The notes beneath the pieces are model-generated. The model was not told where the DNA came from, did not search any database, and saw nothing but the letters and a program-made list of their open reading frames with translations. From positions 512,001 through 576,000 of the forward strand of contig CBDCDC010000001.1 of NCBI GenBank assembly GCA_965215195.1: DNA of 64,000 nucleotides, written 5' to 3'. Every line of letters starts with the position of its first letter. Positions within the stretch are counted from its first letter, which is position 1. Source of the DNA: Candidatus Latescibacterota bacterium. GTDB taxonomy: Bacteria > Latescibacterota > UBA2968 > UBA8231. This document shows positions 18,218-44,231 of this stretch, in pieces. The translations under genes and the position numbers were made by a program.

Positions 18218-19102
18218 ACCAATGGTGCTAGTGAGTTGACCGTGGTCAAGGTAGTTCCTACGCTGAGGGTATCCCCCCTTTCAGCGAAGGAGCGTCCCAT
18301 GACCACGGCCGAGTTTATAATAGCCCTGTTCTGTCGAATCGACCACCAGATGGGCGATGTGCCCAAACACCCCCAAGCCGCCTTATATCCCAGCGAAACG
18401 GTGACCTTGGCGGTTCTGTATGCGCTCAAAGGGGGCGGCAAACGGGCGTTTTATCGCTGGGTAGCGCGCGATTGGCGCGCCTTTTTTCCGCGCCTGCCCG
18501 AGCGCACCCGCTTGTTCCGCCTGTTTGCCGCCCATGCGGACTGGACCGATCGCTTTCGAGCGGACCCCACCCCTTTAGGCGTGATCGATAGCTATGGCAT
18601 CGAGTTGATCCATCCAGTACGCGAAGGCCGCTCCGCTCACCCTATCGGCCGGAAAGGGCGGTCCAATCACCGCTGGATCGTCGGCGGCAAGCTGGGCTTG
18701 ATCGTCAACCAATGGGGCTTGATCGTCGATTGGGATTGTAATACCGCCAATGTCCACGATACGGTCTTTCACCCGATGATTGGCCGCTACGAAGAGCAGA
18801 TGATCCTCCTCAGCGACCAAGGCTTTCATGCCAAAGCCGGTGATCCGGCCAATCTGAAAGTGTGTCCCCGCAAAACGTGGGGCGAGCGTATGGTCATCGA
18901 GACCGTCTTTTCCATGCTGACCCGCATCGGGCACTTCAAGCGACAGACCCATCGAGCCTGGGCCTACTTTAGAGCGCATCTGAGCTTTGCCATGGCCACC
19001 TTCAACCTGCTGGTTCAGTGGCACGGGTTGCAACCCGATGAAAATGGATTCGTCCGCTTGTCCATCGCGGAATTTAGCTTGTAGCCCACTAGCACCATTG
19101 GT
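18218..19102 (+). mobile_element. IS982-like insertion sequence, copy 1 (885 bp)
   Basis: Terminal IRs ACCAATGGTGCTAGTG / CACTAGCACCATTGGT; 5-bp TSD TAATA at 18213-18217 and 19103-19107; single DDE transposase. Confidence 0.9.
18299..19084 (+). CDS. DDE transposase (IS982-like)
   Basis: IDSYGIE (D), LSDQGF (D), RMVIETVFS (E); start MTTAEF after AAGGAG. Confidence 0.88.
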   Translation: MTTAEFIIALFCRIDHQMGDVPKHPQAALYPSETVTLAVLYALKGGGKRAFYRWVARDWRAFFPRLPERTRLFRLFAAHADWTDRFRADPTPLGVIDSYGIELIHPVREGRSAHPIGRKGRSNHRWIVGGKLGLIVNQWGLIVDWDCNTANVHDTVFHPMIGRYEEQMILLSDQGFHAKAGDPANLKVCPRKTWGERMVIETVFSMLTRIGHFKRQTHRAWAYFRAHLSFAMATFNLLVQWHGLQPDENGFVRLSIAEFSL

Positions 19103-30031: not shown

Positions 30032-31095
30032 TGCCCACTTTGTGCGCCGAAGACCTCGATGCACTGGCGCGAGCTTGCTTGCGACGCGTCGGCGTCCCCT
30101 TGTCCGCCGCCGCGTTGGTGGCCGAGCACTTGGTCGAAGCCGGGCTAATGGGGCACGACACCCACAGCGTGTTGCGGCTGCCCCAATACGTGAACATGGT
30201 GCGCGACGGCCAAGTTGAGCCTAAAGCTGAGTTGGTGGTGTTGGACGAAAGCGAGTGCGGGGGCCGGCTGAGCGGCCAGTGGAACTACGGCCCGGTGACG
30301 GCGACCCAAGCCGTGCGCTGGGTGCTGGACAAGGTAGGCAACGGGGCGGTGGCGGTCGCCGGAGTGCGCGACTGCAACCACGTGGCGCGGCTGGGGCGCT
30401 TTGCCGAGATCGCCACCCGCGCCGACTGCATCGCCCTCATCGCGGCCAATGGCCACGGCGGCGATGGGGCGGTGGCCCCGTTTGGCGGCCGCAGCCGCCG
30501 CCTGCCCACGAATCCGCTCTGCTGCGGCATTCCCACCAGCGGCGCGTGGCCAGTTATCCTAGACATGACGACGAGCATGATTTCCGGCGGCGATATGCGG
30601 CTCTTGCGCAACCGAGGCGAGGACGCTCCGCCCGGGATGCTGATCGACGCGGAGGGCCGCCCGACGACGAGTGTGGATGCGTACTACGGCCCGCCGGCCG
30701 GTGCCATGTTGCCGCTCGGTTTCCCCCAGAGCGGGCACAAGGGCTACGGGCTTTCCGTGCTAGTCGATATTTTGGCCGGGTCGCTTTCCGGGGCTGGGAT
30801 GACGCAAGAAGCACCCGAGCGCGCCGGCAACGCCCTGTTCATCGCCGTGCTCAAGGTCGCGGCCTTCCTGCCGTTGGACGAGTTCTACGCCGAGGTCGCG
30901 GGCTTTGTCGAGTGGGTCAAGTCGTGTCCGCCGGCTCCCGGAGTGGCCGAGGTGTTGCTGCCCGGAGAGCGGGCGCACCAGCGGTTGCAGGCGCGGCGGC
31001 GCAATGGCCTGTACGTGGATGAGACAGCTTGGGCCGAGATAGGGGCTTTGGCGGCTGAGTTGGGGGTGGAACTGCCCACGCCCGTGGCCGCTTAG
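30031..31095 (+). CDS. Ldh_2 family (malate/L-lactate/L-sulfolactate-type) oxidoreductase
   Basis: GHDTHS, NHVARLG, TNPL, LDMTTS, HKGYGL, LLPGE; GTG start overlapping the upstream stop. Confidence 0.88.
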   Translation: MPTLCAEDLDALARACLRRVGVPLSAAALVAEHLVEAGLMGHDTHSVLRLPQYVNMVRDGQVEPKAELVVLDESECGGRLSGQWNYGPVTATQAVRWVLDKVGNGAVAVAGVRDCNHVARLGRFAEIATRADCIALIAANGHGGDGAVAPFGGRSRRLPTNPLCCGIPTSGAWPVILDMTTSMISGGDMRLLRNRGEDAPPGMLIDAEGRPTTSVDAYYGPPAGAMLPLGFPQSGHKGYGLSVLVDILAGSLSGAGMTQEAPERAGNALFIAVLKVAAFLPLDEFYAEVAGFVEWVKSCPPAPGVAEVLLPGERAHQRLQARRRNGLYVDETAWAEIGALAAELGVELPTPVAA

Positions 31096-31210
31096 GCGCG
31101 ATCCTTTGCGCCGGTAACGCATCAACGATCAGCCCAAGGGATTTAGCTGCTGGATCAGGAGCAGTAGATCAATTTTTTTATAAAAACCGCAAACCAAAAA
31201 GGAGTTTGCC

Positions 31211-32206
31211 ATGCTTCACATCGGGATCGTCGGCATGGGTGGAATTGGCAACAACCACGCCCGTTGCTACACTGCAAACGAGAACACAGAGGTCGTGGCC
31301 GTGTGCGATATGGTCGCCCAACAGGCCGACGCAGCGGCCGAGCGCTACGGGGCGCGGGCCTTTTACTCGGTCGAGGCGATGATCGCCAGCGGCCTGCGGC
31401 TCGACGCCTGCTCGGTGACCACGGCCGGGGTGGAGAACGGAGGCGATCACTACGAGCCGACCATGGCCCTTTTGCGCGCCGGCATTCCCGTGCTGGGCGA
31501 GAAGCCGATTTCCAATGAAATTCCCAAGGCGCGGGAAATGGTGGCCTTGGCCGCAGAAAAGCAGTTGCCCTATGGGATCAACCTGAACCACCGCTTCACG
31601 CCCGCGGCCGTCAGGGCCAAGGAATGGCTGACCAACGGGCGGCTCGGCGAGCTACAAATAGTCAACATGACGATGTGGATCAACAATCCCAATGAGTCGA
31701 GCCCGTGGTTCCACATCCGCGCCCTGCATCCGCACTCGCTGGACGTGATGAGCTATTTCGCCGGTGGGGTGGATCGGGTACACGCCTTTTTCAAAAAGGG
31801 TAAAGGCCGGCAGATCTGGTCCAATGTGCAGGCAAACCTGCTGTACGAGAATGGCGTCATCGGGCATTTGACCGGATCGTACGACGCCGGAGGGAGCTAC
31901 GGCTTGGAGACCTTGGAGCTGGTCGGCTCGGAGGGACGGGTTATCATCAATGAAGCCTGCGAAAAGCTCGCGTTTTACCCGCGTTTTTCGCGCGAGGTGG
32001 AAAGCTACGATCACCTCGGGGGCATGGGCGGCTTTGCAGATACCTTTCCGGCGCGCATCAACGCTTGGATCGACGACTTGCGCCGCCAAGTCCCGCCTTC
32101 GCAGGTGGATGCCAAAGGCGCGGACGCTTTGCGGGTCCAGCTCGTAATTGAGGCACTCATCGAAAGCTGGGAAACCGGGCAGGTGGTGAAGGTGCCCAAG
32201 GGATAG
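31211..32206 (+). CDS. Gfo/Idh/MocA family oxidoreductase
   Basis: VGMGGIG, GEKPIS, LNHRF; AAGGAG SD. Confidence 0.9.
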   Translation: MLHIGIVGMGGIGNNHARCYTANENTEVVAVCDMVAQQADAAAERYGARAFYSVEAMIASGLRLDACSVTTAGVENGGDHYEPTMALLRAGIPVLGEKPISNEIPKAREMVALAAEKQLPYGINLNHRFTPAAVRAKEWLTNGRLGELQIVNMTMWINNPNESSPWFHIRALHPHSLDVMSYFAGGVDRVHAFFKKGKGRQIWSNVQANLLYENGVIGHLTGSYDAGGSYGLETLELVGSEGRVIINEACEKLAFYPRFSREVESYDHLGGMGGFADTFPARINAWIDDLRRQVPPSQVDAKGADALRVQLVIEALIESWETGQVVKVPKG

Positions 32207-32249
32207 GCGATTTACATTCACGCAGTAACGCCAAAAGGAGGACGTAAAC

Positions 32250-33983
32250 ATGCTTAAAATTCAGCGCAAATTTCTCGATTATCTCGACGAGATAAAAGCG
32301 GAATTGGGCAAGACCGATTCGGCCGAGGAGCTGCAAAAAAACATCAAGGCCATAGAGTCGTTGAGACAAGAACTGGCCGAGGCCGAATTGATCGTGCCGG
32401 TAGTCGGGGCTTTCAGCGCGGGCAAAACCACGTTGATCAACTCCTTTTTGGGCACCGGACCTCTGCCCGTAGGCATTACCCCGGAAACGGCGTTGGCTAC
32501 TGAACTGCGTCATGCCGCTAGCGATTATGGCGAGGCGGTCGCCGAGAATGGCGCGGTGGATCGCTTCGCCATTGGGGAGATCGAGGAGATCAAGGAAAAG
32601 GCGTCGCAATATCAATACGCCAAGGTCTTTCTCAACAGCGAGCCGCTCAGGGAGATTCTCCCTCTCGTGCTGGTGGATATGCCGGGGTTTGACTCGCCGC
32701 TGGATTTGCATCAGAAGGCCATTTTGACCTATCTCGCCAAGGGGAGTCACTATGCGGTTTTGATCAGCGTGGAGGAGGGCACTGTCACCCGCTCGATCCA
32801 GCGGCAGTTGGCTGAATTTCACGAATTTGGCAAGGGGTTTTCCATCTTTTTGAGCAAGGTGGATCTGCGCTCGCCTGCCGATGTAGATGACATTGCCAGC
32901 GATATTGCGGAGCGGCTCGAGGACGATTTTGATTTTGGCGATTCCATTGAGCGGGTGGACATGCATGGCGGGCACGGCTTGGCCAAGATGCTTCGTGCCA
33001 TCAATTGCGAAGAGCTGTTCGGCAAGCTGTGGCGTCCCGGCTTGGAGGCGCATTTCTTTGAACTCGATGGCAGCCTGAACACTCGGATTAGCTCCCTGCA
33101 AAAGGACGGGCGGAAAAACCAAGAGGCCATAGACGAACTCGGCGCGGGTTTACAGGAACTACAGCGCAAAAAGGAAGAGATGATTCAAGATATTCACGCG
33201 CGGTATTCCACTAACCGCATCGACACCATCGTAGAGGGGGTCGGCGAGGATATGAGTGCTGCCGTAGAGGAGCTAACGCAGCTTTCTCTGTCTGGTGGAG
33301 AAGACGCCTTGCAGCGCGAATTGTCCGAGCTCGTCCGCACTTCGCTCGTGAGCCGTACGGAATCCGAAATGGAGCGGTTGAACCAACAGATCGCCGGGGA
33401 TTTAGCTAGCAGCCTCACAGGCATCAGCGCTACCCTGTCCTCTTACGCCAACGCGAGCACGGAGCAGCATTTAGAGAAAATCTCAAAGTTGGCTAGAGTG
33501 GGAGAAGTTTTTAGGAACGTAGGCATGGGCGCAAAGGCTGCGAAGGCTGCAAAAGGCGGGCTGACTTTATACCGAGGTGTTACCGCTGCGCTAGCCATTA
33601 CCACCAGTATTGTGATGCCGCTCTTGGAGTTGGTCATCGTATTCCTGCCCGACATCATCAACTTCTTTAGGAAGCGGCAACAAGCAGAGCAGGTTCGCGA
33701 TCAGTTGATTGGCACGGTTATCCCGTCCGTCAAACGCAAAATTCGCAGCGAACTGCCCAAGCACTTCAAAGAGCAGGTGAACGCTCTGATTGAGGAAAAG
33801 GCCGCGGCTCTCGATGAGCACATCAAGGCTAGGCAAGACGAAATCGCCAAAGCCGAAAAGGCCAAGAAGGACGCAGGTCGGAATATCGAGCAGGAGATAG
33901 GCGAACTTACTTCCATTCGGGACAACATTCGCTCGTCGGCAAACCAAGTACTCTTCGCACAAGGAGAAACGAAAAATGGATAA
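32250..33983 (+). CDS. Dynamin-like GTPase 1 (LeoA-like)
   Basis: G1 VGAFSAGKTT, G2 PETA, G3 DMPG, G4 SKVD; hydrophobic paddle ALAITTSIVMPLLELVIVFLP; coiled coils. Confidence 0.85.
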   Translation: MLKIQRKFLDYLDEIKAELGKTDSAEELQKNIKAIESLRQELAEAELIVPVVGAFSAGKTTLINSFLGTGPLPVGITPETALATELRHAASDYGEAVAENGAVDRFAIGEIEEIKEKASQYQYAKVFLNSEPLREILPLVLVDMPGFDSPLDLHQKAILTYLAKGSHYAVLISVEEGTVTRSIQRQLAEFHEFGKGFSIFLSKVDLRSPADVDDIASDIAERLEDDFDFGDSIERVDMHGGHGLAKMLRAINCEELFGKLWRPGLEAHFFELDGSLNTRISSLQKDGRKNQEAIDELGAGLQELQRKKEEMIQDIHARYSTNRIDTIVEGVGEDMSAAVEELTQLSLSGGEDALQRELSELVRTSLVSRTESEMERLNQQIAGDLASSLTGISATLSSYANASTEQHLEKISKLARVGEVFRNVGMGAKAAKAAKGGLTLYRGVTAALAITTSIVMPLLELVIVFLPDIINFFRKRQQAEQVRDQLIGTVIPSVKRKIRSELPKHFKEQVNALIEEKAAALDEHIKARQDEIAKAEKAKKDAGRNIEQEIGELTSIRDNIRSSANQVLFAQGETKNG

Positions 33984-36171
33984 TCGTGCAATAGCTTCCT
34001 ACCAAGAAAAGCTGGAGCAGGTTGTTGACAAGCATCGCGACTTTCTCGGGGAGGAGGCAGAACGCCTCTGCGTTGAGCACAGCGTTCCCGCGGCCAAGAG
34101 GCTACAAGAAGAATTGGCGGCCATTGCCGACGAGGAACGGCTGCTGAAGATCGGCATCGTGGGGCGGGTCAAGTCCGGGAAATCCTCGCTGCTGAACGCC
34201 CTCATCTTCAAAGGACAGAACGTGTTGCCCAAGGCCGCAACCCCAATGACGGCGGCTTTGACGACCCTTTCCTACGGGGATGTGGTGCAGGCGGAAGTGG
34301 AATTTTTTACGCGCGAGGATATTGGGGATATCGAGGCCAAGGCCGCAGAGTACGAAAGGCAGTTGCAGAAGCACACCGACGCGCTTTTAAAAAAAGAAAA
34401 GAGCAAGCTCAGCCTAAGCGTGTCTCCAGAAAAAAGGGAACGTGTGCAGCGGCGGGCAGCAAGGAAGATGCGCGATGAGCATCCCGTCCTCGCATCCTCC
34501 TATGAGCAACGCGCAAAAATGAAAGACAGCGGAATATCCGCTAGCAGTTTGGGGGAAAGTAAGCTCCTGAATTTGACGGACGATCTTTCAGCGTTGCAAG
34601 GCCAACTAGAGGAATACGTTGGCGCGGACGGCCCATACATGCCTTTTACCAAAAGCGTCAACATCCGGCTGCCGCAAGAGAATCTGAAGGACATAGAGAT
34701 CGTAGATACGCCGGGCATCAATGATCCGGTTCAGTCCAGAGAGGTACGCACCCGAGAGCACTTGGATCGGTGCGATGTGGTGCTCGTGGTTAGCCCGGCG
34801 GGTCAATTCATGAATAAGGTGGATGAGGACTTGATGGATCGCATTACCAGCAAGGAGGGGATTCGGGAACTATTTGTCGTGGCGGCCCAGGCAGATATGC
34901 AACTGTATGGCAGCGCGAAAGAGGAAAACGACGGGCAGTTGGATCGCGTGCTAGGCAGTATCACCGAGGATCTTGGGGGGTACTTGAAAGAGGTCATCGT
35001 CGATCTAAAAAAGAACAATCCCGAGGTGGCAGATACCTATGATCAGTTGCTCGATGGCCAAAACAGAATCATCCATTCTTCGGGCATTTGCGAAAGCCTG
35101 AAGCAACTCTTTGGGGAAAGGGATGGATGGGACGAGGGGATGGAGCATGCGTGGAACCGTTTGCAGGGGAATTATCCCGATTATTTTTCCACTGCGGACG
35201 CGAGCCTATCGAGTATCAATTTGGATAAGCTGTCCAACATATCGGCTATTCGGGACATTGTCGAGAAGGTTCGTGAGAGAAAGGATGACATTCGCGAAAA
35301 GAAAATCGCCGCCTATGTCGATGACAAACGCCGGGCTTTACAGGACCTGAGAACGGGGTTGCTCAAGTTTGCCGAGGATAGGCAGGGCGAAATTGAGAGT
35401 ACGGATATTACAAGGTTTAAGGAAAAGCATAGAAAGATGGATTCGTCTCTCAAAGAGGCTGCTTTGGATATTGAGGATGCGAAGGATGAATCGGTTGATC
35501 GCATCGAAAAATCTATGAAAGATGAATTGGTACGAAGAGTGACGGAAGAGGAGTTAAAAGGAAAGGTACGGGACGAACAGGGAGAGCGAACTGAAGACTA
35601 TACGGAAGGAGTTATTTTTAAGAAAAAACGCACTAGGCGGCATAAAACCATCCGCACACGTGCGGTCGTCAATCACTTATCTGATTTTTCTGAAAATTTA
35701 GTGAAGGAAGTTGCGGAGAAAGCAGAGGAAAAAAAGAAAGATTGGCGGAAGGAACTCAACCGTAGGATGACCAAAATTTTGCGGGATCATTTTGACAACG
35801 ATCTTTTAGAGTCCTCAATGATCCGCCGAGTAATCAGGAGCACCGTTGGGGCCATATCTATGCCAGATTTTAAGTACGACAAACCGCTGCCGCCCGAGCT
35901 GAAAGCCCAAGGCGTATTAGAAGACAAGAAGGCAGAGGCATTTTTTAATGCCGCGTGTGACCATGCCAGTACGCTCTGTAGAGAGCTTAGAAGAGAGACA
36001 ATAGCATACATAAAACGTTTTACTTCAGAGATGAAAAAAATTCCATTGGAAAGGCTACTGCTAGAACAGTTCCAAAAAGAGCTTGACTCGCTTGAGGAGT
36101 CCATTAGAAACAAGGAGATGGAGTTAAATAGAATCAGCTTAATCAAGGGTGAGTTGGAAAGGATCGAGTGA
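33976..36171 (+). CDS. Dynamin-like GTPase 2
   Basis: VGRVKSGKSSLLN, PMTA, DTPGIND, AQAD; long helical C-terminus; overlaps gene 1. Confidence 0.85.
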   Translation: MDNRAIASYQEKLEQVVDKHRDFLGEEAERLCVEHSVPAAKRLQEELAAIADEERLLKIGIVGRVKSGKSSLLNALIFKGQNVLPKAATPMTAALTTLSYGDVVQAEVEFFTREDIGDIEAKAAEYERQLQKHTDALLKKEKSKLSLSVSPEKRERVQRRAARKMRDEHPVLASSYEQRAKMKDSGISASSLGESKLLNLTDDLSALQGQLEEYVGADGPYMPFTKSVNIRLPQENLKDIEIVDTPGINDPVQSREVRTREHLDRCDVVLVVSPAGQFMNKVDEDLMDRITSKEGIRELFVVAAQADMQLYGSAKEENDGQLDRVLGSITEDLGGYLKEVIVDLKKNNPEVADTYDQLLDGQNRIIHSSGICESLKQLFGERDGWDEGMEHAWNRLQGNYPDYFSTADASLSSINLDKLSNISAIRDIVEKVRERKDDIREKKIAAYVDDKRRALQDLRTGLLKFAEDRQGEIESTDITRFKEKHRKMDSSLKEAALDIEDAKDESVDRIEKSMKDELVRRVTEEELKGKVRDEQGERTEDYTEGVIFKKKRTRRHKTIRTRAVVNHLSDFSENLVKEVAEKAEEKKKDWRKELNRRMTKILRDHFDNDLLESSMIRRVIRSTVGAISMPDFKYDKPLPPELKAQGVLEDKKAEAFFNAACDHASTLCRELRRETIAYIKRFTSEMKKIPLERLLLEQFQKELDSLEESIRNKEMELNRISLIKGELERIE

Positions 36172-36272
36172 GCCAATGAATCGCCTATTTGACTGGATTC
36201 CGCTTCCGTGGGAAGGACAAAAGAATACCGAAGAGGAAGGGTAGATCTATGTCCGGCAAGCTGTCTAGGACG

Positions 36273-36405
36273 CAAAAGTGGGATCGGATACAGGCCGACT
36301 TAGCGGCTGTTCAGCAAAAGTGGGATCGGATACAGGCCGACTTAGCGGCTGTTCAGCAAAAGTGGGATCAGACACAGGCCGACTTAGCGGCTGTTCAGCA
36401 AAAGT
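36273..36405 (+). repeat. 42-bp tandem repeat x3 (QKWDRIQADLAAVQ coiled coil)
   Basis: CAAAAGTGGGATCGGATACAGGCCGACTTAGCGGCTGTTCAG repeated. Confidence 0.9.
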
Positions 36406-37706
36406 ACGATTTGGTCTCCACTCTGCTAGCGGCCAAATCCAGTGAAAACGAAGCGTTTGAGCAGTTCAAGAAGGTCTTCAACGAGGACTTCATGGCCTTT
36501 GCCAATAAGGAGTCTTCGCTGGCCGACGAAGCAGCGGCCGTGCAGCGGTTGCAGGCACTCGAAAAGCGCTTGGAACAGATCGTGGCTTCCCCCCACATGT
36601 TTGCGAAGCGGTCTGTTGCCATCGGCGGCGGGTTCAGCAGCGGCAAGTCGGCGTTTGTCAATAGCTTTATTGCCCAGCCCGGCATCCGACTGCCCGTGGG
36701 CATTCAGCCGGTGACGGCCATTCCTTCGTATGTAATGGCCAGTAAAGACGTTTCAATCAAGGGCTATACTCGCACAGGGGCTACAGTGGATATTGCGCAA
36801 GACCTCTACGAGCAACTGTCGCACGGCGCGTTTTCCTTTAACCTCAAGGATCTGATGCCTTCCATCGCCGTGGAAGTGCCGTTGCAGGCGGGCTTTGAGC
36901 ACATCTGTTTGCTCGACACGCCGGGCTATGATCCGGCCGGGGGGCAGACTAGCGAGGACGAGGCCACGGCGGCCGAATTTCTCAAGGATCAAGACGCCTT
37001 AATTTGGATGGTTGATGTGGCAAAAGGCACGGTGGAGCAGGAGGATTTGAATTTCATTGAGGGGCTAGGGCTGAATGGTCGTCCGTTTTACGTGGTCGTG
37101 AACAAGGCCGACAACAGGCCCCCCAATGAATTGGCGGGGGTTCTGGCCGAGGTGAAAGAGACGCTGGAGGACGCTGAGTTGAAACCGCTAGGAATCGGCG
37201 CGTACTGCAGTCTTCGGAACGAGCGCGGTCGGGAATATCCGTCGGAGGGTCTGTCTCTGCCCGATTTTTTCCGTTGCCAAAATCAGCCGGTTGAGAATTT
37301 GGAACCTGAATTGAAAGCGGAGTTAGAAAGCGTCTTTTCCATGTATGAAAAGGCCATAGACAAAGACGAGCAGAGTGCCAAGTTGCTGACGAAAAAACTC
37401 AACAAGCTCGATCTTGATCTAAATGAGAAGGTAGATGAGGATGTAGCGGAGGAGTTTGGCAAAACAATTGACAAAATCAAGCGAGATCAAAACCGCGATT
37501 TTGCTCCGATCAAGCAGGAGTTGGCTCGGGTGAAGAAGGCCATGTTCGCGGCGGTGGAGCAGGTTCTTCGGTCCTTGGTAGATGAGGAGAGTGCCGCCGA
37601 GCTAAGTAAAATCCGGCGGCAACAAGCGCGACCGAGTGAGCGTTCTCAACCTACCCGCCCACGACAACCTGTAGAGGAGCCGGCGCGACGAAGGGCCACA
37701 GGCCGT

Positions 37707-38305
37707 GCCAAAGACGCCAAAGGTCGCTACGCGCTGCACGAAGCGGCGGCGCACAATAATCACGAGAAAGCTAGCGCATTGCTGCGTGGGGGAGCCGATC
37801 CGAATGCCAAAGACAAGCAAGGCCTCACGCCGCTGCACCATGCAGCCAAGCAGAATGCTCGCGAAACAGTCGAGGTGTTGCTCGATGCGAGAGCCTCTCG
37901 CAATCCTAAAGACAAGCAAGGCCTCACGCCGTTGCACCATGCAGCCAAGCAGGGTGCTCGCGAAACAGTCGAGGTGTTGCTCGATGCGGGAGTCTCTCGC
38001 AATCCTAAAGACAAGCAGGGCCTCACGCCGTTGCACCATGCGGCCGAGCAGGATGCTCACAAAACAGTCAAGGTGTTGCTCGACCGCAGGCGAACTTCAA
38101 CAGCAAAGGTCCACTCTATGGACAAGGAGGGCCGGACGCCGTTGCACTATGCGGCTGCACACGATGCTCACCAAGCGGCCAAGGTGTTGCTGACTAAGGG
38201 AGCCGCTCCGAATGTCAAGGATAAAGATGGTTATACGCCGCTGGACTATGCGGCCGAGCAGGATGCACACCAAACGGTCAAGGTGTTGCTGGATGCGGGA
38301 GCCGA
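37707..38305 (+). repeat. Ankyrin repeats (6 units, 99-bp near-tandem)
   Basis: KDKQGLTPLHHAA-type repeats, three nearly identical at DNA level. Confidence 0.9.
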
Positions 38306-38982
38306 ACATCGAGATCAGGCGGCGTTGGAGAAGCAGCATCGGGCGCAAGCGGCGTTACGTCGAGATCAGGCGGCGTTGGAGAAGCAGCGTCGGGCGCAAG
38401 CGGCGTTGGCCGAAGAGCGCAAGAGGGGCAAGGAGGTTTCGCTTCCGGGGGGGGTGTCGATGACGTTTGTTTGGATTGAGCCGGGGGTGTTTCAGATGGG
38501 GTCGCCGGCTTCGGAGACGAGTCTTTATGGTGATGAAAGGCCGGTGCATGAGGTGTCGATTAGCGAGGGGTTTTGGTTGGGTCAATACGCGGTTACGCAG
38601 GGTCAGTGGGAATCAGTGCTGAGGGATCGGCCTTGGTCTGGTAAGCGGTATGTTGTAGAGAATTCGTCTCATCCGGCGGTGTATATCTCATGGGATGCTG
38701 TGCAAGGGTTTATTGCTAAGCTGAACGCGTTGGCCGGTGCTTCGTTGTATCGGTTGCCTTCGGAGGCGGAGTGGGAGTATGCGTGTCGAGCGGGTACATC
38801 GACTCGTTGGTCGTTTGGGGATGACGAGCGCCACCTGACGGATTATGCGTGGTATAGGGATAATGCTGAGTATGATGCTCGTGCGGTGGGTCTAAAGCGT
38901 CCGAATCCTTGGGGGTTGTATGACATGCATGGGAATGTGCGGGAGTGGGTTCAGGACTGGTATAAGCATAACTATTATAATA

Positions 38983-39867
38983 ACCAATGGTGCTAGTGGG
39001 CTACAAGCTAAATTCCGCGATGGACAAGCGGACGAATCCATTTTCATCGGGTTGCAACCCGTGCCACTGAACCAGCAGGTTGAAGGTGGCCATGGCAAAG
39101 CTCAGATGCGCTCTAAAGTAGGCCCAGGCTCGATGGGTCTGTCGCTTGAAGTGCCCGATGCGGGTCAGCATGGAAAAGACGGTCTCGATGACCATACGCT
39201 CGCCCCACGTTTTGCGGGGACACACTTTCAGATTGGCCGGATCACCGGCTTTGGCATGAAAGCCTTGGTCGCTGAGGAGGATCATCTGCTCTTCGTAGCG
39301 GCCAATCATCGGGTGAAAGACCGTATCGTGGACATTGGCGGTATTACAATCCCAATCGACGATCAAGCCCCATTGGTTGACGATCAAGCCCAGCTTGCCG
39401 CCGACGATCCAGCGGTGATTGGACCGCCCTTTCCGGCCGATAGGGTGAGCGGAGCGGCCTTCGCGTACTGGATGGATCAACTCGATGCCATAGCTATCGA
39501 TCACGCCTAAAGGGGTGGGGTCCGCTCGAAAGCGATCGGTCCAGTCCGCATGGGCGGCAAACAGGCGGAACAAGCGGGTGCGCTCGGGCAGGCGCGGAAA
39601 AAAGGCGCGCCAATCGCGCGCTACCCAGCGATAAAACGCCCGTTTGCCGCCCCCTTTGAGCGCATACAGAACCGCCAAGGTCACCGTTTCGCTGGGATAT
39701 AAGGCGGCTTGGGGGTGTTTGGGCACATCGCCCATCTGGTGGTCGATTCGACAGAACAGGGCTATTATAAACTCGGCCGTGGTCATGGGACGCTCCTTCG
39801 CTGAAAGGGGGGATACCCTCAGCGTAGGAACTACCTTGACCACGGTCAACTCACTAGCACCATTGGT
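38983..39867 (-). mobile_element. IS982-like insertion sequence, copy 2 (885 bp, inverted)
   Basis: Same TIRs and identical transposase translation as copy 1; TSD TAATA at 38978-82 and 39868-72. Confidence 0.92.
39001..39786 (-). CDS. DDE transposase (IS982-like)
   Basis: Protein identical to 18299..19084 in the ORF track. Confidence 0.88.
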   Translation of the reverse strand: MTTAEFIIALFCRIDHQMGDVPKHPQAALYPSETVTLAVLYALKGGGKRAFYRWVARDWRAFFPRLPERTRLFRLFAAHADWTDRFRADPTPLGVIDSYGIELIHPVREGRSAHPIGRKGRSNHRWIVGGKLGLIVNQWGLIVDWDCNTANVHDTVFHPMIGRYEEQMILLSDQGFHAKAGDPANLKVCPRKTWGERMVIETVFSMLTRIGHFKRQTHRAWAYFRAHLSFAMATFNLLVQWHGLQPDENGFVRLSIAEFSL

Positions 39868-40088
39868 TAATAGCTCGCCTCGGGTTGACCCCCGGGGGCC
39901 TTCATCCGGCTCCTATCGTGTCATTCGGGGCGGCGACGTCGACGCTCCCGCCCGGAAGGTGCGGTCGGCGTTTCGCGGCTCCGAAGGGGACGGCTACCGC
40001 CACGCCCGCATTGGTGTGCGCCTTCTCAGGATTCGTTAACCCTTGATTCCTTTTACCCTTGGCGGGGGTTGAGGGGTATGGGGCCTGC

Positions 40089-40182
40089 TTTTGGGGGGAT
40101 CCTAACAATAGGGGCTGGACGCCGCTGTGCTGTGCAGTGAAAAACAAAGCCCAAGAGACGGTCCGATTATTGCGCCAGTATC
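40089..40182 (+). pseudogene. Ankyrin-repeat gene fragment
   Basis: GDPNNRGWTPLCCAVKNKAQETVRLLRQY resembles the ANK units upstream; no credible start. Confidence 0.45.
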
Positions 40183-40252
40183 TTCCCTTACTTTGGAGAG
40201 GGGAGCGGATTGAAACCAATCAGTCGGTAGAATGGCGGCTAAGAAGGTAGTT

Positions 40253-40261
40253 TGTTATACT
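40253..40261 (+). promoter_or_regulatory. Extended -10 promoter for lepB and possibly the proteasome operon
   Basis: TGTTATACT 13 nt upstream of ATG 40275, followed by a GAGGAG SD. Confidence 0.4.
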
Positions 40262-40274
40262 CAGGTCTGAGGAG

Positions 40275-40988
40275 ATGCCGCAGATGAAGCACGCCAAGCA
40301 AAAGTCCGAACTCGGCCAATACCTGTATTCTATATTGACCGTCGTGGGTTTGTTTCTGGTCATTCGCACCAGTGTGGTGCAGGCCTTTTACATCCCTTCC
40401 AGCTCAATGGAAGACACGCTCTTGGTGGGCGATTATCTGCTGGCCAACAAGTTTATCTACGGCGTCCCGGTCGATGTGCCCCTGACGAGCATTTCCCTCT
40501 TCCGCCTGCCCGCGCTCAGGGAACCGCAGCCGGGCGACATCGTCATTTTCCGCTCTCCGCAGGACGAAGGGCGCGACTTGATCAAGCGCTGCGTCGCCGT
40601 TGGGGGGCAGAAAGTGGAAATTATCAACAAGGTGCTCTACGTCGATGGTCAGCGCCAGCAGGACCCGCCACAGACCAAGTACACGGAACGCAGATTGCTC
40701 TCGGCGGCGCGCAGCGCCCGCGACAATTTCGGACCCTATATCGTGCCCGATGGGCATTTCTTTATGATGGGCGACAACCGCGACAACAGTCTCGACAGCC
40801 GCTACTTTCGCGCCGTGCCCAAGCGGTTGATCAAGGGCAAGGCCATGAGCATCTATTGGTCGTGGGCACCCGACACCCGCGGGCCGTACTACAGTGGCTT
40901 GACGTCGCTGCCCGCGGTGGTGGCCAGCTTTGTCTGGCGTTTGCCCAGCCGAGTGCGCTACGAGCGGCTCGGCGACGTGATCTACTAA
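40275..40988 (+). CDS. lepB: Signal peptidase I
   Basis: IPSSSMEDTL (catalytic Ser), DLIKRCV (Lys), MGDNRDNSLDSR. Confidence 0.95.
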   Translation: MPQMKHAKQKSELGQYLYSILTVVGLFLVIRTSVVQAFYIPSSSMEDTLLVGDYLLANKFIYGVPVDVPLTSISLFRLPALREPQPGDIVIFRSPQDEGRDLIKRCVAVGGQKVEIINKVLYVDGQRQQDPPQTKYTERRLLSAARSARDNFGPYIVPDGHFFMMGDNRDNSLDSRYFRAVPKRLIKGKAMSIYWSWAPDTRGPYYSGLTSLPAVVASFVWRLPSRVRYERLGDVIY

Positions 40989-40998
40989 GGGGAGCGGA

Positions 40999-42678
40999 TT
41001 GAAACACTACGAACAACGCGACGAGCCAGAGAAGCAGGTCGCCGAGCCCTTGCGCTTGGTCGATCAGCTGCTTGCGCTAGCTCCAGACCGCGACCCGACC
41101 CGGCCCCTGCTGTACCGCCTCCGGCGCCAGCTCATGGAGCGGGAGATTTCCTTTCAGGAGGCGCACCGGGCCCTCGTGGAGATGGAAGCCGCCCTAGAAA
41201 AGGTGACGGCCCCGGCCAACCGCGTCGGCATCTTCCTCGGCATGCCGAGCGAGGGAATTGCCACGGTCTTCGTCGGCAGTGCCGAATACTACGCCAACAT
41301 CGACCCGCGCGTCGATGTGTCCCAGCTCAAGGTCGGCTGCCGGGTGCTGGTAAACGAAGCCTACGCGGTCGTCGGTAACTTGGGGCACAGCCCCTCCGGG
41401 CCGGTGGCCAAGGTCGGCGATCTGCTCGGGGGGGGCCGGTTGCGGATCGCCCAAGCGCACGGTACCCAAGAGGTGGTCGTGGAGCGCGCCGCGGAATTGG
41501 CCGACGCGGATTTGCAAATCGGCGACGAGGTGCGCATGGACCCAGCCTACAAGGTCGCCCTAGAAGTGTTGCAGTCGGCCGAGAGCAAGGAATACTTCAT
41601 TGAGGACGTTCCCCCCACCCCTTGGGAGAGCATCGGCGGCCAAGCCGAAGCGATAGAAGCCATCCGCGACACCATTGAACTGCCCGCATTGCACCCCCAG
41701 CTCTTCGAGCGCTTCGAGTACTCAACGCCCAAGGGCTTCCTGCTCTACGGCCCCCCGGGCTGCGGCAAGACCCTCATCGGTAAGGCCACGGCATACAACT
41801 TGGTGCAGCACATGCGCGAGGTTGAGGGCTTGGAGTTAGAGGAGTATTTCATGCACATCAAGGGGCCGGAGATCCTCAACATGTGGCTCGGCGAGACCGA
41901 GCGCATGGTGCGCGAGGTCTTTGCCCAAGCGCGGCAAAAGCGCAAGGAAGGCTACTTGCCCTTTGTCTTTATCGACGAAGCTGAGTCGATCTTGGGCACT
42001 CGGCGCTCCATGCGCAGCCACAACATCTCCAACACGGTTGTGCCGATGTTTTGCACTGAGATGGACGGCATTGAGTCCCTGCACGACGTGGTGCTGATTT
42101 TGGCCTCTAACCGCCACGATCTAATCGACCCGGCCGTGCTCCGGCCCGGCCGCATCGACCGCAAGATCAAGGTCGCGCGCCCCAACTACGAAGCAGCCGG
42201 CGACATTTTGCGGATTTACCTCAAGCCCGAGCTGCCGCTCGACCGCGCCGAGGTGGAGCAGCACGGCGGCGAGGCGGCGGCGCGCGAGGTCCTGATACAG
42301 GAGGGCCTCAACGAGTTGTTTTCCAAAGGCGAAGAGGCCCGCTTCTTGGAGGTGTCGCTGCGCAGCGGCCGCCAAGAAGTGCTCTATCGCGGCAACCTGA
42401 TTTCCGGGGCCATCATCGCCTCGGTCGTTTCGCGGGCCAAGGAAATGGCAATCAAGCGCGCCATTGCCGAGGGCGACCCGGAAGGCGGGATCCGCGGCGC
42501 GGATCTGCGGCAGGCCACGCGGGCCGAATACCGCGAAAACGAAGTGTTCCCACCCTCGGACAGCGTCGAAGACTGGCTCAAGCTGCTCGACTACGAGCCC
42601 GAGAACGTGGTGCGGGTGACGCCGGTTAGACCCCAGCCGGAAAAGACACCGGAAAAGCGCGTCGGCCAAGTAATCTGA
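40999..42678 (+). CDS. arc: Proteasome-associated AAA+ ATPase (ARC/Mpa-like)
   Basis: N-terminal coiled coil and OB domains, YGPPGCGKT, IKGPEILN, FIDEAES, NRHDLIDPAVLRPGRIDRKI; TTG start after AAGGGGAG. Confidence 0.92.
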   Translation: MKHYEQRDEPEKQVAEPLRLVDQLLALAPDRDPTRPLLYRLRRQLMEREISFQEAHRALVEMEAALEKVTAPANRVGIFLGMPSEGIATVFVGSAEYYANIDPRVDVSQLKVGCRVLVNEAYAVVGNLGHSPSGPVAKVGDLLGGGRLRIAQAHGTQEVVVERAAELADADLQIGDEVRMDPAYKVALEVLQSAESKEYFIEDVPPTPWESIGGQAEAIEAIRDTIELPALHPQLFERFEYSTPKGFLLYGPPGCGKTLIGKATAYNLVQHMREVEGLELEEYFMHIKGPEILNMWLGETERMVREVFAQARQKRKEGYLPFVFIDEAESILGTRRSMRSHNISNTVVPMFCTEMDGIESLHDVVLILASNRHDLIDPAVLRPGRIDRKIKVARPNYEAAGDILRIYLKPELPLDRAEVEQHGGEAAAREVLIQEGLNELFSKGEEARFLEVSLRSGRQEVLYRGNLISGAIIASVVSRAKEMAIKRAIAEGDPEGGIRGADLRQATRAEYRENEVFPPSDSVEDWLKLLDYEPENVVRVTPVRPQPEKTPEKRVGQVI

Positions 42679-42686
42679 CTCAGCTC

Positions 42687-44231
42687 ATGCAGCGGCTCTG
42701 CGGGGTAGAAACCGAGTACGGCATCCAAGTTGATGAAAGCGAGTCCATGGACGTGGTAGTAGAGTCCATGGAGCTGATCCGCTGCTATGTGCGCCAAGAT
42801 TTTGTCGCTCTCTGGGATTACGCGCTCGAAAACCCCCGGCTCGACATGCGCGGCTTTGAGGTGGCCGCGCTCCGCAACGACAAGGACGAGACCGTCCACT
42901 TGCAAAAGGATCGCCAGCGCCCGATCCAGCTAGCAGACCTCAAGAGCGACCTGATCGTCCACAACGGGGCCCGCCTGTACAACGACCACACCCACCCGGA
43001 ATTTTCCACCCCAGAATGCTATGGCCTCCGCGACTTGGTAGCCGCCGATCGCGCCGGGGAGCGGATCCTCCTCCAGTGTGCGCGTCGGCGCACCGAGGCT
43101 CGCGGCTGCGGCGTGGTGCGTTTGTACAAAAACAACACCGACTTCGAGGGGCACAGCTACGGCTGCCACGAGAATTTTCTGCTCAGCCGCGACATCCCCT
43201 TCGAGCAGGTGATCGACGGGCTGCTGCCCTTTGTGGTGACGCGGCAAATTTTTGCCGGGGCCGGCAAGGTCGGCGTCGAACAGGACGCCCGGGCGCGGGC
43301 CGCCACCTACCAGCTAACCCAGCGTGCGGACTTTTTCGAGGTCATCGCCAGCGTCGATACCATGCACCGCCGTCCGCTGGTCAACACCCGCGACGAACCG
43401 CACGCCGATCCAGCGCACTACCGCCGCCTGCACCTGATCATCGGCGACGCCAACATGTGCGAATACGCGACCGCGCTCAAGGTCGGCACGGCTTCCTTGG
43501 TATTGGACCTGCTAGAGGCCGGCGCATTGCCGGCGTTTGCATTGGCCGATCCCATTGGCGCACTCAAGGCCATTTCCCGCGACGAGTCCCAGCAGTGGCC
43601 GGTGGCCTTGTCTGGAGGAGGGACAAGTTCGGCGCTGGAGATCCAAGCGGCCCTTATGGCGGCGGCGACGCGGGTTTTTCAGGGCCGCGACGAGGAGACA
43701 GATTGGATCCTCGCGGCTTGGCGCGACGTGTTGGACGCACTCGTGCGCGACCCGCAAGAGCTGATTGGACGCCTCGATTGGGTGACCAAGAAGTGGCTTT
43801 TGGATGCGTTTGCCGAGTCCGAGGGTCTCGATTGGGAACGGCCAGACGACCGCGCTTGGCTGCAAAGCCAAGACCTCGAATACCACAACATCGACCCGGC
43901 TGAGGGCCTATACGCGACGCTCGAAGCGGCCGGCCAAGTAGAGCGCGTCGTCTCCGCGGAGGCGGTGTGTCGGGCGGTGGTCGATCCGCCCGGGGACACG
44001 CGGGCCTATTTCCGCGGCAAGATGTTGCAGAAATTTGCCTCCGCCGTGCGCTCGCTCAACTGGGACAGCATTGAGCTGGAACTCAATGGCCGCTCCGAGG
44101 TCATCGACCTCAAGGCTTGTGTTGGCAGGGAGACAGCGGCTTATTATAACCAAGCCTTAGACGCGGCTTTGAGCGTCGAGGATTTGCTCGCCAGATTGGG
44201 TCAAAACCCGAAACCGGAGGTGTCACCATGA
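42687..44231 (+). CDS. dop: Dop-like deamidase/deconjugase
   Basis: GVETEYGI, GARLYNDHTHPEFSTPEC, SYGCHENFL, QRADFFE, NTRDEPHAD, RRLHLIIGDANM. Confidence 0.88.
   Translation: MQRLCGVETEYGIQVDESESMDVVVESMELIRCYVRQDFVALWDYALENPRLDMRGFEVAALRNDKDETVHLQKDRQRPIQLADLKSDLIVHNGARLYNDHTHPEFSTPECYGLRDLVAADRAGERILLQCARRRTEARGCGVVRLYKNNTDFEGHSYGCHENFLLSRDIPFEQVIDGLLPFVVTRQIFAGAGKVGVEQDARARAATYQLTQRADFFEVIASVDTMHRRPLVNTRDEPHADPAHYRRLHLIIGDANMCEYATALKVGTASLVLDLLEAGALPAFALADPIGALKAISRDESQQWPVALSGGGTSSALEIQAALMAAATRVFQGRDEETDWILAAWRDVLDALVRDPQELIGRLDWVTKKWLLDAFAESEGLDWERPDDRAWLQSQDLEYHNIDPAEGLYATLEAAGQVERVVSAEAVCRAVVDPPGDTRAYFRGKMLQKFASAVRSLNWDSIELELNGRSEVIDLKACVGRETAAYYNQALDAALSVEDLLARLGQNPKPEVSP

Follow-up and report, generated by a model that had tools for sequence, protein, structure and literature searches.

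Dynamin-family GTPases defend animal cells, as the Mx proteins and GBPs do, and the two-gene bacterial Eleos system blocks jumbo phages. The parts of the cited sources on which we draw throughout describe Eleos as a two-gene system of Bacillus vietnamensis (preprint 10.1101/2022.05.11.491447), in which, where tested, the GTPase P-loops are required for anti-phage activity (preprint 10.1101/2022.05.11.491447; PMC4159319). LeoABC of enterotoxigenic Escherichia coli is encoded as leoC-leoB-leoA, its first dynamin-like protein (DLP) being split over two genes (PMC4159319), and the Campylobacter jejuni pair DLP1/DLP2 provides a model of membrane tethering by heterotypic DLP assemblies (PMC6104087). 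Here we analyse a locus in a stretch of 64,000 nucleotides (termed the window) of a Candidatus Latescibacterota bacterium genome (contig CBDCDC010000001.1). The locus carries a broken copy of a three-gene DLP operon that is widespread and unnamed, and whose genes we term A, B and C. It resembles Eleos and LeoABC in having consecutive dynamin-like GTPases in one island-borne operon. However, it encodes three complete GTPases where Eleos has two, and exchangeable binding modules on the third subunit are a feature of the window's family that the accessible text on Eleos does not describe. Tandem bacterial dynamins are already known from Eleos; the new features are the presence of three subunits, the third of which is of plug-in type, and the lectin cassette on it. 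The explanation we favour, and hold to be somewhat better than an even bet, is that the operon lies on an accessory island and encodes a membrane machine aimed by modules, and that its lectin cassette, a domain of the formylglycine-generating enzyme (FGE) type, was copied into an arm which an insertion sequence (IS) has since broken. The features of the operon are as follows.

32250-33983, plus strand: gene A, a dynamin-like GTPase of 577 aa, preceded by an AAGGAGG ribosome-binding site
33976-36171, plus strand: gene B, a large dynamin-like GTPase of 731 aa, sharing its first 8 nt with the end of A
36249-38982, plus strand: gene C, the part 5' of the IS insertion; the present frame ends at a TAG inside the IS (38994-38996)
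36272-36405, plus strand: N-terminal coiled-coil repeat of C (QKWDRIQADLAAVQ), a tandem array of 42 nt x 3.2
37710-38320, plus strand: six ankyrin repeats of C (Pfam Ank, six stretches, E 1.6e-37)
38309-38407, plus strand: coiled-coil linker repeat of C (QAALEKQ...), a tandem array of 51 nt x 1.9
38463-38982, plus strand: FGE-sulfatase domain of C (C-lectin fold), the portion before the IS (Pfam E 2e-35)
38983-39867, minus strand: IS982-like insertion sequence of 885 bp, with a DDE transposase open reading frame (ORF) at 39001-39849 on the minus strand
39872-40039, plus strand: severed 3' end of gene C, the last 55 codons and the stop, a variable-region-like end of the lectin domain
40040-40075, plus strand: 3' untranslated stretch (CCCTT..TTTTACCCTT), conserved among five FGE cassettes in alignments

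All three gene products match Pfam Dynamin_N above its cut-off of 27 bits (A 59.5, B 78.2 and C 41.0 bits). Moreover, a regular-expression scan for the GTPase motifs G1 (GxxxxGKS/T), G3 (DxPG) and G4 recovers GAFSAGKT, DMPG and SKVD in A, GRVKSGKS, DTPG and NKVD in B, and GGFSSGKS, DTPG and NKAD in C. The GC content is 0.46-0.55 across 33000-37500, compared to 0.62-0.69 in the flanks. ORF positions, Dynamin_N matches and GC values all agree with the sequence-only reading, an earlier annotation of the window, which had proposed three consecutive dynamin-like GTPases of lower GC than their surroundings. The layout it gave for the third gene (N-terminal repeat, linker, six ankyrin repeats, second repeat and FGE domain) is likewise reproduced by the tandem arrays and the Pfam matches. 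The ankyrin units of C form a third tandem array (99 nt x 2.8), and the FGE-sulfatase match before the IS ends at position 197 of the 255 in the profile. The ORF of C opens at 36189; the ATG at 36249 is the more likely start, because it has a GAGGAAGGG ribosome-binding site and agrees with the start of the homologue P0001. A riboswitch or other element upstream was rejected, as Rfam gave 0 matches at gathering score across 30500-41000, and a scan of the locus for promoters and terminators did no better than shuffles.

The three GTPases differ in their predicted relation to the membrane. A hydrophobic segment is found in A alone (residues 443-475, maximum Kyte-Doolittle value 2.33 at residue 448), and neither B nor C, with hydropathy peaks of 0.83 and 1.13, has one. 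Since this putative paddle is restricted to A, this protein would be the membrane-binding subunit. B may be the large, DLP1-like subunit: it matches DLP1 of the C. jejuni pair (PDB 5OWV/5OXF; 5owv_A, E 2.3e-12). DLP2 (5owv_C) is matched by A (E 1.2e-7) and by the core of C (E 5.2e-9), and the fold of the C core matches both chains. The similarity to this pair is low, however, and the window differs from it in having a third GTPase and in that its C core lacks trunk and paddle and bears ankyrin and lectin modules instead. The C core (460 aa), modelled with AlphaFold from a 30-row alignment (predicted local distance difference test score, pLDDT, 86; predicted template modelling score 0.76), consists of a long N-terminal helix, the GTPase and one helical bundle, with no paddle. 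A Foldseek search with this model returns minimal mitofusin-1 at the top (5yew, 2e-13) together with IniA, BDLP and the C. jejuni DLP pair, followed by EHD and MxA. The AlphaFold2 model of intact P0001 (pLDDT 75) shows a disordered linker at 459-490, six ankyrin helix pairs at pLDDT ~96, a long helix at 690-728 and a poorly resolved FGE domain; when the whole model was searched with Foldseek only ankyrin proteins were returned, and the core was therefore modelled on its own. Judged from these models, C looks like a minimal dynamin without a membrane-binding part of its own that bears a flexible arm. It could be a mitofusin/BDLP-type GTPase that acts as an adaptor, with N- and C-terminal add-ons that vary by lineage.

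A scan of the genome collection with an alignment of C homologues yielded 80 loci, in which the A-B-C order was scored by ORFs that best match A, B and C with at least 130 bits each. The order is kept in 70 of the 80 loci. Seven of the ten exceptions are contigs of at most 6 kb that are cut near the match; the others have B and C only (L021 and L091) or A and C only (L052). Judged by record titles, the loci span about ten phyla and include Latescibacterota, Desulfobacteraceae, Muiribacteriota, Campylobacterota (among them Helicobacter pylori), Spirochaetes, many Pseudomonadota, Bacteriovorax, Fibrobacter and Planctomycetota. Plasmid-borne operons are found on one Calditerrivibrio plasmid and on two Pseudomonas aeruginosa megaplasmids, where they are annotated as three 'dynamin family protein' genes. 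Gene B has matches to 3604 cluster representatives (50% identity) at E<=0.001, of which 673 reach E<=1e-30; the matched proteins are mostly full-length, with ~740-780 aa. In the genome of the window (G000), 13 Dynamin_N matches fall into four clusters, one of which is a paralogous B-C pair (G000:C2:1392797-1397420; L012:4797-9420), whose products are 51% and 45% identical to B and C of the window; its C-like gene has seven ankyrin repeats and no FGE domain, and the pair is flanked by aroB on one side and the gene of a MiaB-like radical-SAM protein on the other. An A gene is present at the aroB/MiaB-like site of other Latescibacterota (L019, L020). Two more clusters are Dynamin_N triples (G000:C1:610700-616500 and G000:C2:2432600-2439800; L011, L013), which encode proteins of 599/651/662 aa and 782/814/788 aa that are less than 30% identical to A, B and C.

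The arm of the third subunit is exchangeable. Among the best 120 of 186 matches to the C core (E<=1e-20), counted by hand from precomputed Pfam families, 62 carry ankyrin repeats, 20 helix-hairpin-helix (HhH) motifs, three an FGE-sulfatase domain (P0001-P0003) and one SWIB. A second census comprised 47 proteins, namely 36 of the 81 third-gene ORFs and 11 database matches. Ankyrin repeats are present in seven of them, one of which also has SWIB; six have two to four copies of HHH_3, and three, all from Fibrobacter, have FGE straight after the core. EF-Tu domain 2, a second GTPase-like stretch, PP-binding, a zinc ribbon and TPR occur once each, and the remaining 26 show nothing beyond coiled coil, many of them with N-terminal extensions of 100-300 aa. 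The survey of C-terminal domains proposed by the sequence-only reading thus finds ankyrin, HhH, SWIB, FGE or none. The arm differs even among syntenic orthologues, as C has ankyrin repeats only in G018 (866 aa) and in L015 (692 aa). In the lineage of the window it consists of ankyrin plus FGE, and the same combination of DLP, ankyrin and FGE is found in P0001-P0003, which come from two other contigs. The three-gene operon is widespread, and only the ankyrin-FGE arm is lineage-specific. Concerning the proposal of a DLP system with a modular ligand-recognition arm, the modularity is therefore borne out by this census of third genes, and the recognition of a ligand stays a prediction.

In the window, the operon lies between genes that are kept in relatives.

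31211-32206, plus strand: left flank, GFO/IDH/MocA oxidoreductase
40275-40988, plus strand: right flank, signal peptidase I (lepB)
40999-42678: proteasomal AAA ATPase (ARC; OB domains plus AAA), downstream of signal peptidase I
42687-44231: Pup-ligase family gene, downstream of the proteasomal AAA ATPase

We compared this site in 31 genomes (G000 and 30 relatives), 19 of which, G000 included, make up the genus sample. The oxidoreductase is present in 29 and the proteasomal ATPase in all 31. A homologue of the C core (E<=1e-40), in contrast, is found in three of the 19 genus genomes (G000, G004 and G018) and in one genome of another family. The distance from the oxidoreductase to the ATPase is 8.8 kb in G000, 9.4 kb in G018 and 7.9 kb in G004, but 0.80-0.85 kb in ten genus genomes (G001, G002, G003, G005 and G008-G013), which leaves room for lepB alone; it is 1.8 kb in G007 and ~4-5 kb in G014-G016. 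By Pfam, L014 and L015 have the same flanking genes, and the best related loci all come from metagenome-assembled genomes of Candidatus Latescibacterota. Thus, with the site occupied or empty between constant flanks, the operon is an insertion/deletion island at a fixed chromosomal position. The proteasomal ATPase and the Pup-ligase family gene beside lepB are kept in all 31 genomes searched; these Latescibacterota therefore possess pupylation-type genes.

In other phyla the operon keeps different company. A PADLOC scan of 90 flanking ORFs from 13 loci outside the Latescibacterota (E<=1e-8; three listed Latescibacterota loci were left out) gave matches in 11 of the 13, five of which are strong system matches: BREX (BrxL, PglZ) and HEC-05 in Marinobacter, mad2, mad3, mad8 and a TIR protein in Thiothrix, type III restriction-modification in Pseudomonas, SspG, SspH and HEC-06 in Luteibacter, and E1-E2 and JAB in Fibrobacter. 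Weaker helicase, PbeA or RT-protease matches are seen at L027, L028 and L029. A WYL-domain gene stands immediately upstream of A in four of the 13 loci (L035, L039, L081 and L082). On a P. aeruginosa megaplasmid the operon likewise follows a WYL gene and is surrounded by EH-signature, DEAD-box helicase, transposase and integrase genes. Finally, an H. pylori island that varies between strains includes three DLP genes according to a pan-genome study (PMC8935386, in the part consulted). In Fibrobacter, three paralogous genes whose products terminate in a Fib_succ_major domain (PF09603) lie directly downstream of A-B-C(FGE) (L045:6436-10949, L060:10020-13023); the 3' parts of those in L045 repeat at 66-78% DNA identity, and ThiF-type E1 and JAB genes are located upstream in L060.

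The sequence-only reading had spoken of a 'repaired operon', and gene C is indeed interrupted by the 885-bp IS. The element has terminal inverted repeats of 21 nt and is bordered by a 5-bp target duplication, TAATA, at 38978-38982 and 39868-39872. Its transposase matches Pfam DDE_Tnp_1_3 with 31.1 bits (cut-off 27) and NCBIfam IS982 with 63.5 bits, the latter under its cut-off of 130. Of the 20 full or near-full copies in the genome, nine, the one in gene C included, are 100% identical over the matched length, and 5-bp TAnTA duplications accompany most of the 20. The insertion into C is therefore recent, and it was by chance that the IS landed in an AT-rich pentamer. Within the window, a second 100%-identical copy lies at 18218-19102 on the minus strand, with TATTA on both sides. 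Once the IS and one TAATA are taken out, the frame runs into the last 55 codons of C. P0001 (968 aa, 96% identical, from another contig) spans the same junction uninterrupted (...KHNYYNSSPRVDP...); the two proteins share 447/460 residues of the core, 191/200 of the ankyrin part, 167/176 of the FGE stretch that precedes the IS and 48/55 of the tail, where the differences fall at variable positions. That the fusion might be unique or a mis-assembly, a doubt raised in the sequence-only reading, is dispelled by P0001-P0003, in which the DLP-ankyrin-FGE fusion is intact, and by the Fibrobacter third genes with FGE after the GTPase core; a chimera of C was likewise rejected, the junction matching a precise IS excision. 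Logan contigs from two runs of one sample (X3, X4) join 38977 to 39868, skipping 890 nt with five shared letters. This joint resembles the uninterrupted allele and is a hint of it, as it has only 24 letters on the shorter side; the mapping covered four runs, and most of its signal came from paralogous cassettes and copies of the IS. Despite the IS, A and B remain whole, as does the GTPase-ankyrin portion of C. The variable lectin tip is cut off in this genome, and since this is the predicted ligand-binding end of C, the arm is probably non-functional.

The lectin cassette on C belongs to a family within the same genome, which has 19 FGE-sulfatase matches in total, and may have been copied from that family. 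The tail DNA, together with ~20-40 nt beyond the stop, has four full-length paralogues with 76-79% identity. Two of them end Ser/Thr kinases that have a transmembrane helix and, before the FGE domain, the shared QAALEKQ... linker; the other two end a 1569-aa secreted PD40/PPC-repeat protein and a 276-aa secreted FGE protein. Before the IS, the cassette of C is 85% identical in DNA over 586 nt to a kinase cassette (C2:4022801-4023383), and cassette DNA recurs in 17 of the 31 genomes. When aligned, the cassettes are near-identical in their flanks and in the 3' untranslated stretch, and the differences concentrate in ~20 NNC/NNT codons. Adenine-directed mutagenesis of AAY codons by diversity-generating retroelements (DGRs) is known to leave such an NNC/NNT footprint. 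Counted across the four paralogues, the 48 codons of the variable region have 18/19/12 variable sites at positions 1/2/3, and 11 of 23 codons that vary at position 1 or 2 have a fixed third C or T; the corresponding values for the 184 codons upstream are 48/46/86 and 6 of 62.

Comparable grafts are known from other protein families. Families of Ser/Thr-kinase paralogues with C-lectin domains have been described in cyanobacteria (PMC7517822, as far as consulted); there too the cassette is dispersed in the genome and grafted onto Ser/Thr kinases, but the word 'GTPase' occurs 0 times in that article. Kaur, Iyer, Burroughs and Aravind (eLife 2021, PMC8195603) predict that NTPase-fused FGS domains are intracellular sensors of invaders, often associated with DGRs and present in several copies per genome, according to the part of the article consulted. 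The likeness to C is that an NTPase is joined to a C-terminal FGE-type lectin (FGS) domain. In contrast to C, however, the NTPases in question are STAND, KAP and AP-GTPase (the word 'dynamin' appears 0 times in PMC8195603), and the locus in the window has no DGR and has ankyrin repeats in between. DGR variable proteins with FGE-type C-lectin domains, such as TvpA (PDB 2Y3C), have the fold of the cassette, whose variable stretch with NNC/NNT codons is likewise C-terminal. The literature covered, mostly at the level of abstracts and excluding supplements, contains no three-gene bacterial dynamin defence operon, no dynamin-FGE fusion and no link between dynamins and DGRs.

Could the FGE domain be an enzyme, either formylglycine-generating or an EgtB/PvdO-like oxidase, with the GTPase coupling catalysis to the membrane? 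Its Pfam assignment to FGE-sulfatase and a match of 91 bits to the NCBIfam PvdO model, which is under the cut-off of 500, would be in line with this, but the nearest solved structures are PvdO (2e-20) and TvpA (2y3c, a DGR variable protein, 1.9e-19), and true formylglycine-generating enzymes are distant matches at 1e-8 to 1e-9. The 55-residue tail corresponds to the C-terminal region which we take to hold the catalytic cysteine pair of FGE. It contains no cysteine in the window, P0001 or P0002, and it is hypervariable among the paralogues. An enzymatic role is therefore hardly tenable; because the tail lacks cysteine, the cassette is predicted to be non-catalytic, with binding more likely than catalysis. 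It is also improbable that the locus is a plain Eleos/LeoABC member with one extra gene. Such a member would be a tandem DLP operon, as is observed, and no defence models other than LeoA and LeoBC of PADLOC match A or its relatives. Their scores, however, are at most 48 bits with partial coverage, both in the window (40.7 bits for LeoA and 30.8 for LeoBC, on gene A only and over partial ranges, with no Leo match for B or C) and for the homologues from the H. pylori, Pseudomonas, Marinobacter and Fibrobacter loci. Moreover, NCBIfam LeoA/HP0731 (NF041922) gives A 21 bits against a cut-off of 325 and does not match the H. pylori or Pseudomonas homologues, and the accessible Eleos text describes two GTPases (preprint 10.1101/2022.05.11.491447) instead of three complete ones. 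By the tests run, the A-B-C family thus appears to be related to Eleos and not a member of it, which is in keeping with the sequence-only reading, whose author did not recognise the architecture in any characterised system.

A different view is that the operon encodes a housekeeping machine for membrane remodelling or repair, like DynA under envelope stress or IniA/IniC, without a role in conflict, and that its modules tether it to a host structure or an envelope precursor. This view, which we regard as unlikely though worth serious consideration, accords with the housekeeping flanks in Latescibacterota, with the same site being used in G000, G018, G004 and L015, with the position of the second B-C pair between aroB and the MiaB-like gene, and with the resemblance of the C core to the fusogenic mitofusin, BDLP and IniA folds. 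In addition, a Pseudomonas transposon mutant in a LeoA-like DLP is attenuated for growth on fungal exudate (PMC6344628, in the part consulted). It fits less well with the empty site in ten of the 18 sampled genus relatives, with the low GC, plasmid carriage and defence-gene company in other phyla, and with the rapid turnover of third-gene modules, all of which is atypical for housekeeping. The favoured explanation, a module-aimed machine on an accessory island, has its own difficulties. The Latescibacterota loci are flanked by housekeeping genes (oxidoreductase, lepB, Pup-proteasome), with no WYL and no defence neighbours; PADLOC finds no defence match in the flanks of L051 (Pelistega) and L074 (H. 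pylori), and at three of the 13 scanned loci (L039, L047 and L081) the match is to WYL alone. PADLOC v2 is without a model for a three-gene system, and the paralogous B-C pair in this genome is without an A gene. As for the cassette, several codons of the tail in the window itself do not follow the NNC pattern, and the assembly (95% complete) contains no DGR reverse transcriptase or template repeat.

Taken together, by analogy with the known systems, the operon is probably an anti-phage or membrane-repair machine, most likely an Eleos-like, GTP-driven membrane machine aimed by subunit C. A, B and C would assemble at the inner face of the cytoplasmic membrane; the module on C would bind a particular ligand, most likely some part of a phage or mobile element that invades the cell; and GTP-driven assembly would remodel or seal the membrane, as proposed by analogy with Eleos, DynA and Mx. 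We infer complex formation, ligand binding and the defence role from these analogies. The operon family is large, mobile and island-borne, and it is not covered by the defence-model libraries tested. Moreover, the plug-in specificity module on the third subunit (ankyrin, DNA-binding HhH, SWIB or lectin) makes target recognition by bacterial dynamins testable by module swap, and the lectin cassette is a possible link between dynamins and DGR-type hypervariable receptors.

A bolder version of the favoured explanation, which we consider rather unlikely, holds that C is a programmable receptor whose lectin tip is, or was until recently, rewritten by a trans-acting DGR via the conserved 3' stretch as homing signal, and that the operon is a new, phylum-spanning anti-phage system with C as its specificity determinant. 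If true, it would be a bacterial Mx/GBP-like GTPase complex that can be re-aimed at new invader molecules through hypermutation. The locus differs from DGR variable proteins in that neither a template repeat nor a DGR reverse transcriptase was found in the assembly or beside the matches in the sampled relatives. The genome has only two RVT_1 genes, which belong to a group II intron and a type I-C retron. A search with nhmmer (--max) and a profile of the variable region recovered coding FGE tails only and no template repeat; the two template candidates, C2:2911771 and C2:1272781, were rejected as degenerate FGE tails that are not A-rich. No reverse transcriptase adjoins the cassette matches in the 31 genomes sampled, the surroundings of the reverse transcriptases in G000, G018 and G006 contain no repeat pairs, and no pair of variable region and template was found beside the Fibrobacter DLP-FGE genes. 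It may be that the footprint is a relic, or that the retroelement sits in the unassembled 5% of the genome.

Some further elements of these genomes are of note. The retron-type gene of G000 encodes a reverse transcriptase-Toprim fusion (G000:C2:297867-299573; L103:550-2253, minus strand), which matches PADLOC RT-Toprim_I-C with 742 bits, and the ORF upstream of it has a weak PDC-M69B match. An intergenic orphan fragment of ~30 nt (G000:C1:905299-905340; L104:6299-6340) is identical to the conserved 3' end of the FGE cassette; it is directly preceded by ~11 nt that resemble an IS end and may be the scar of an IS-mediated rearrangement. Finally, G018 encodes a secreted protein of 970 aa (L134:4630-7542) in which two FGE-sulfatase domains of this cassette family stand in tandem; both end in a variable-region-like stretch.

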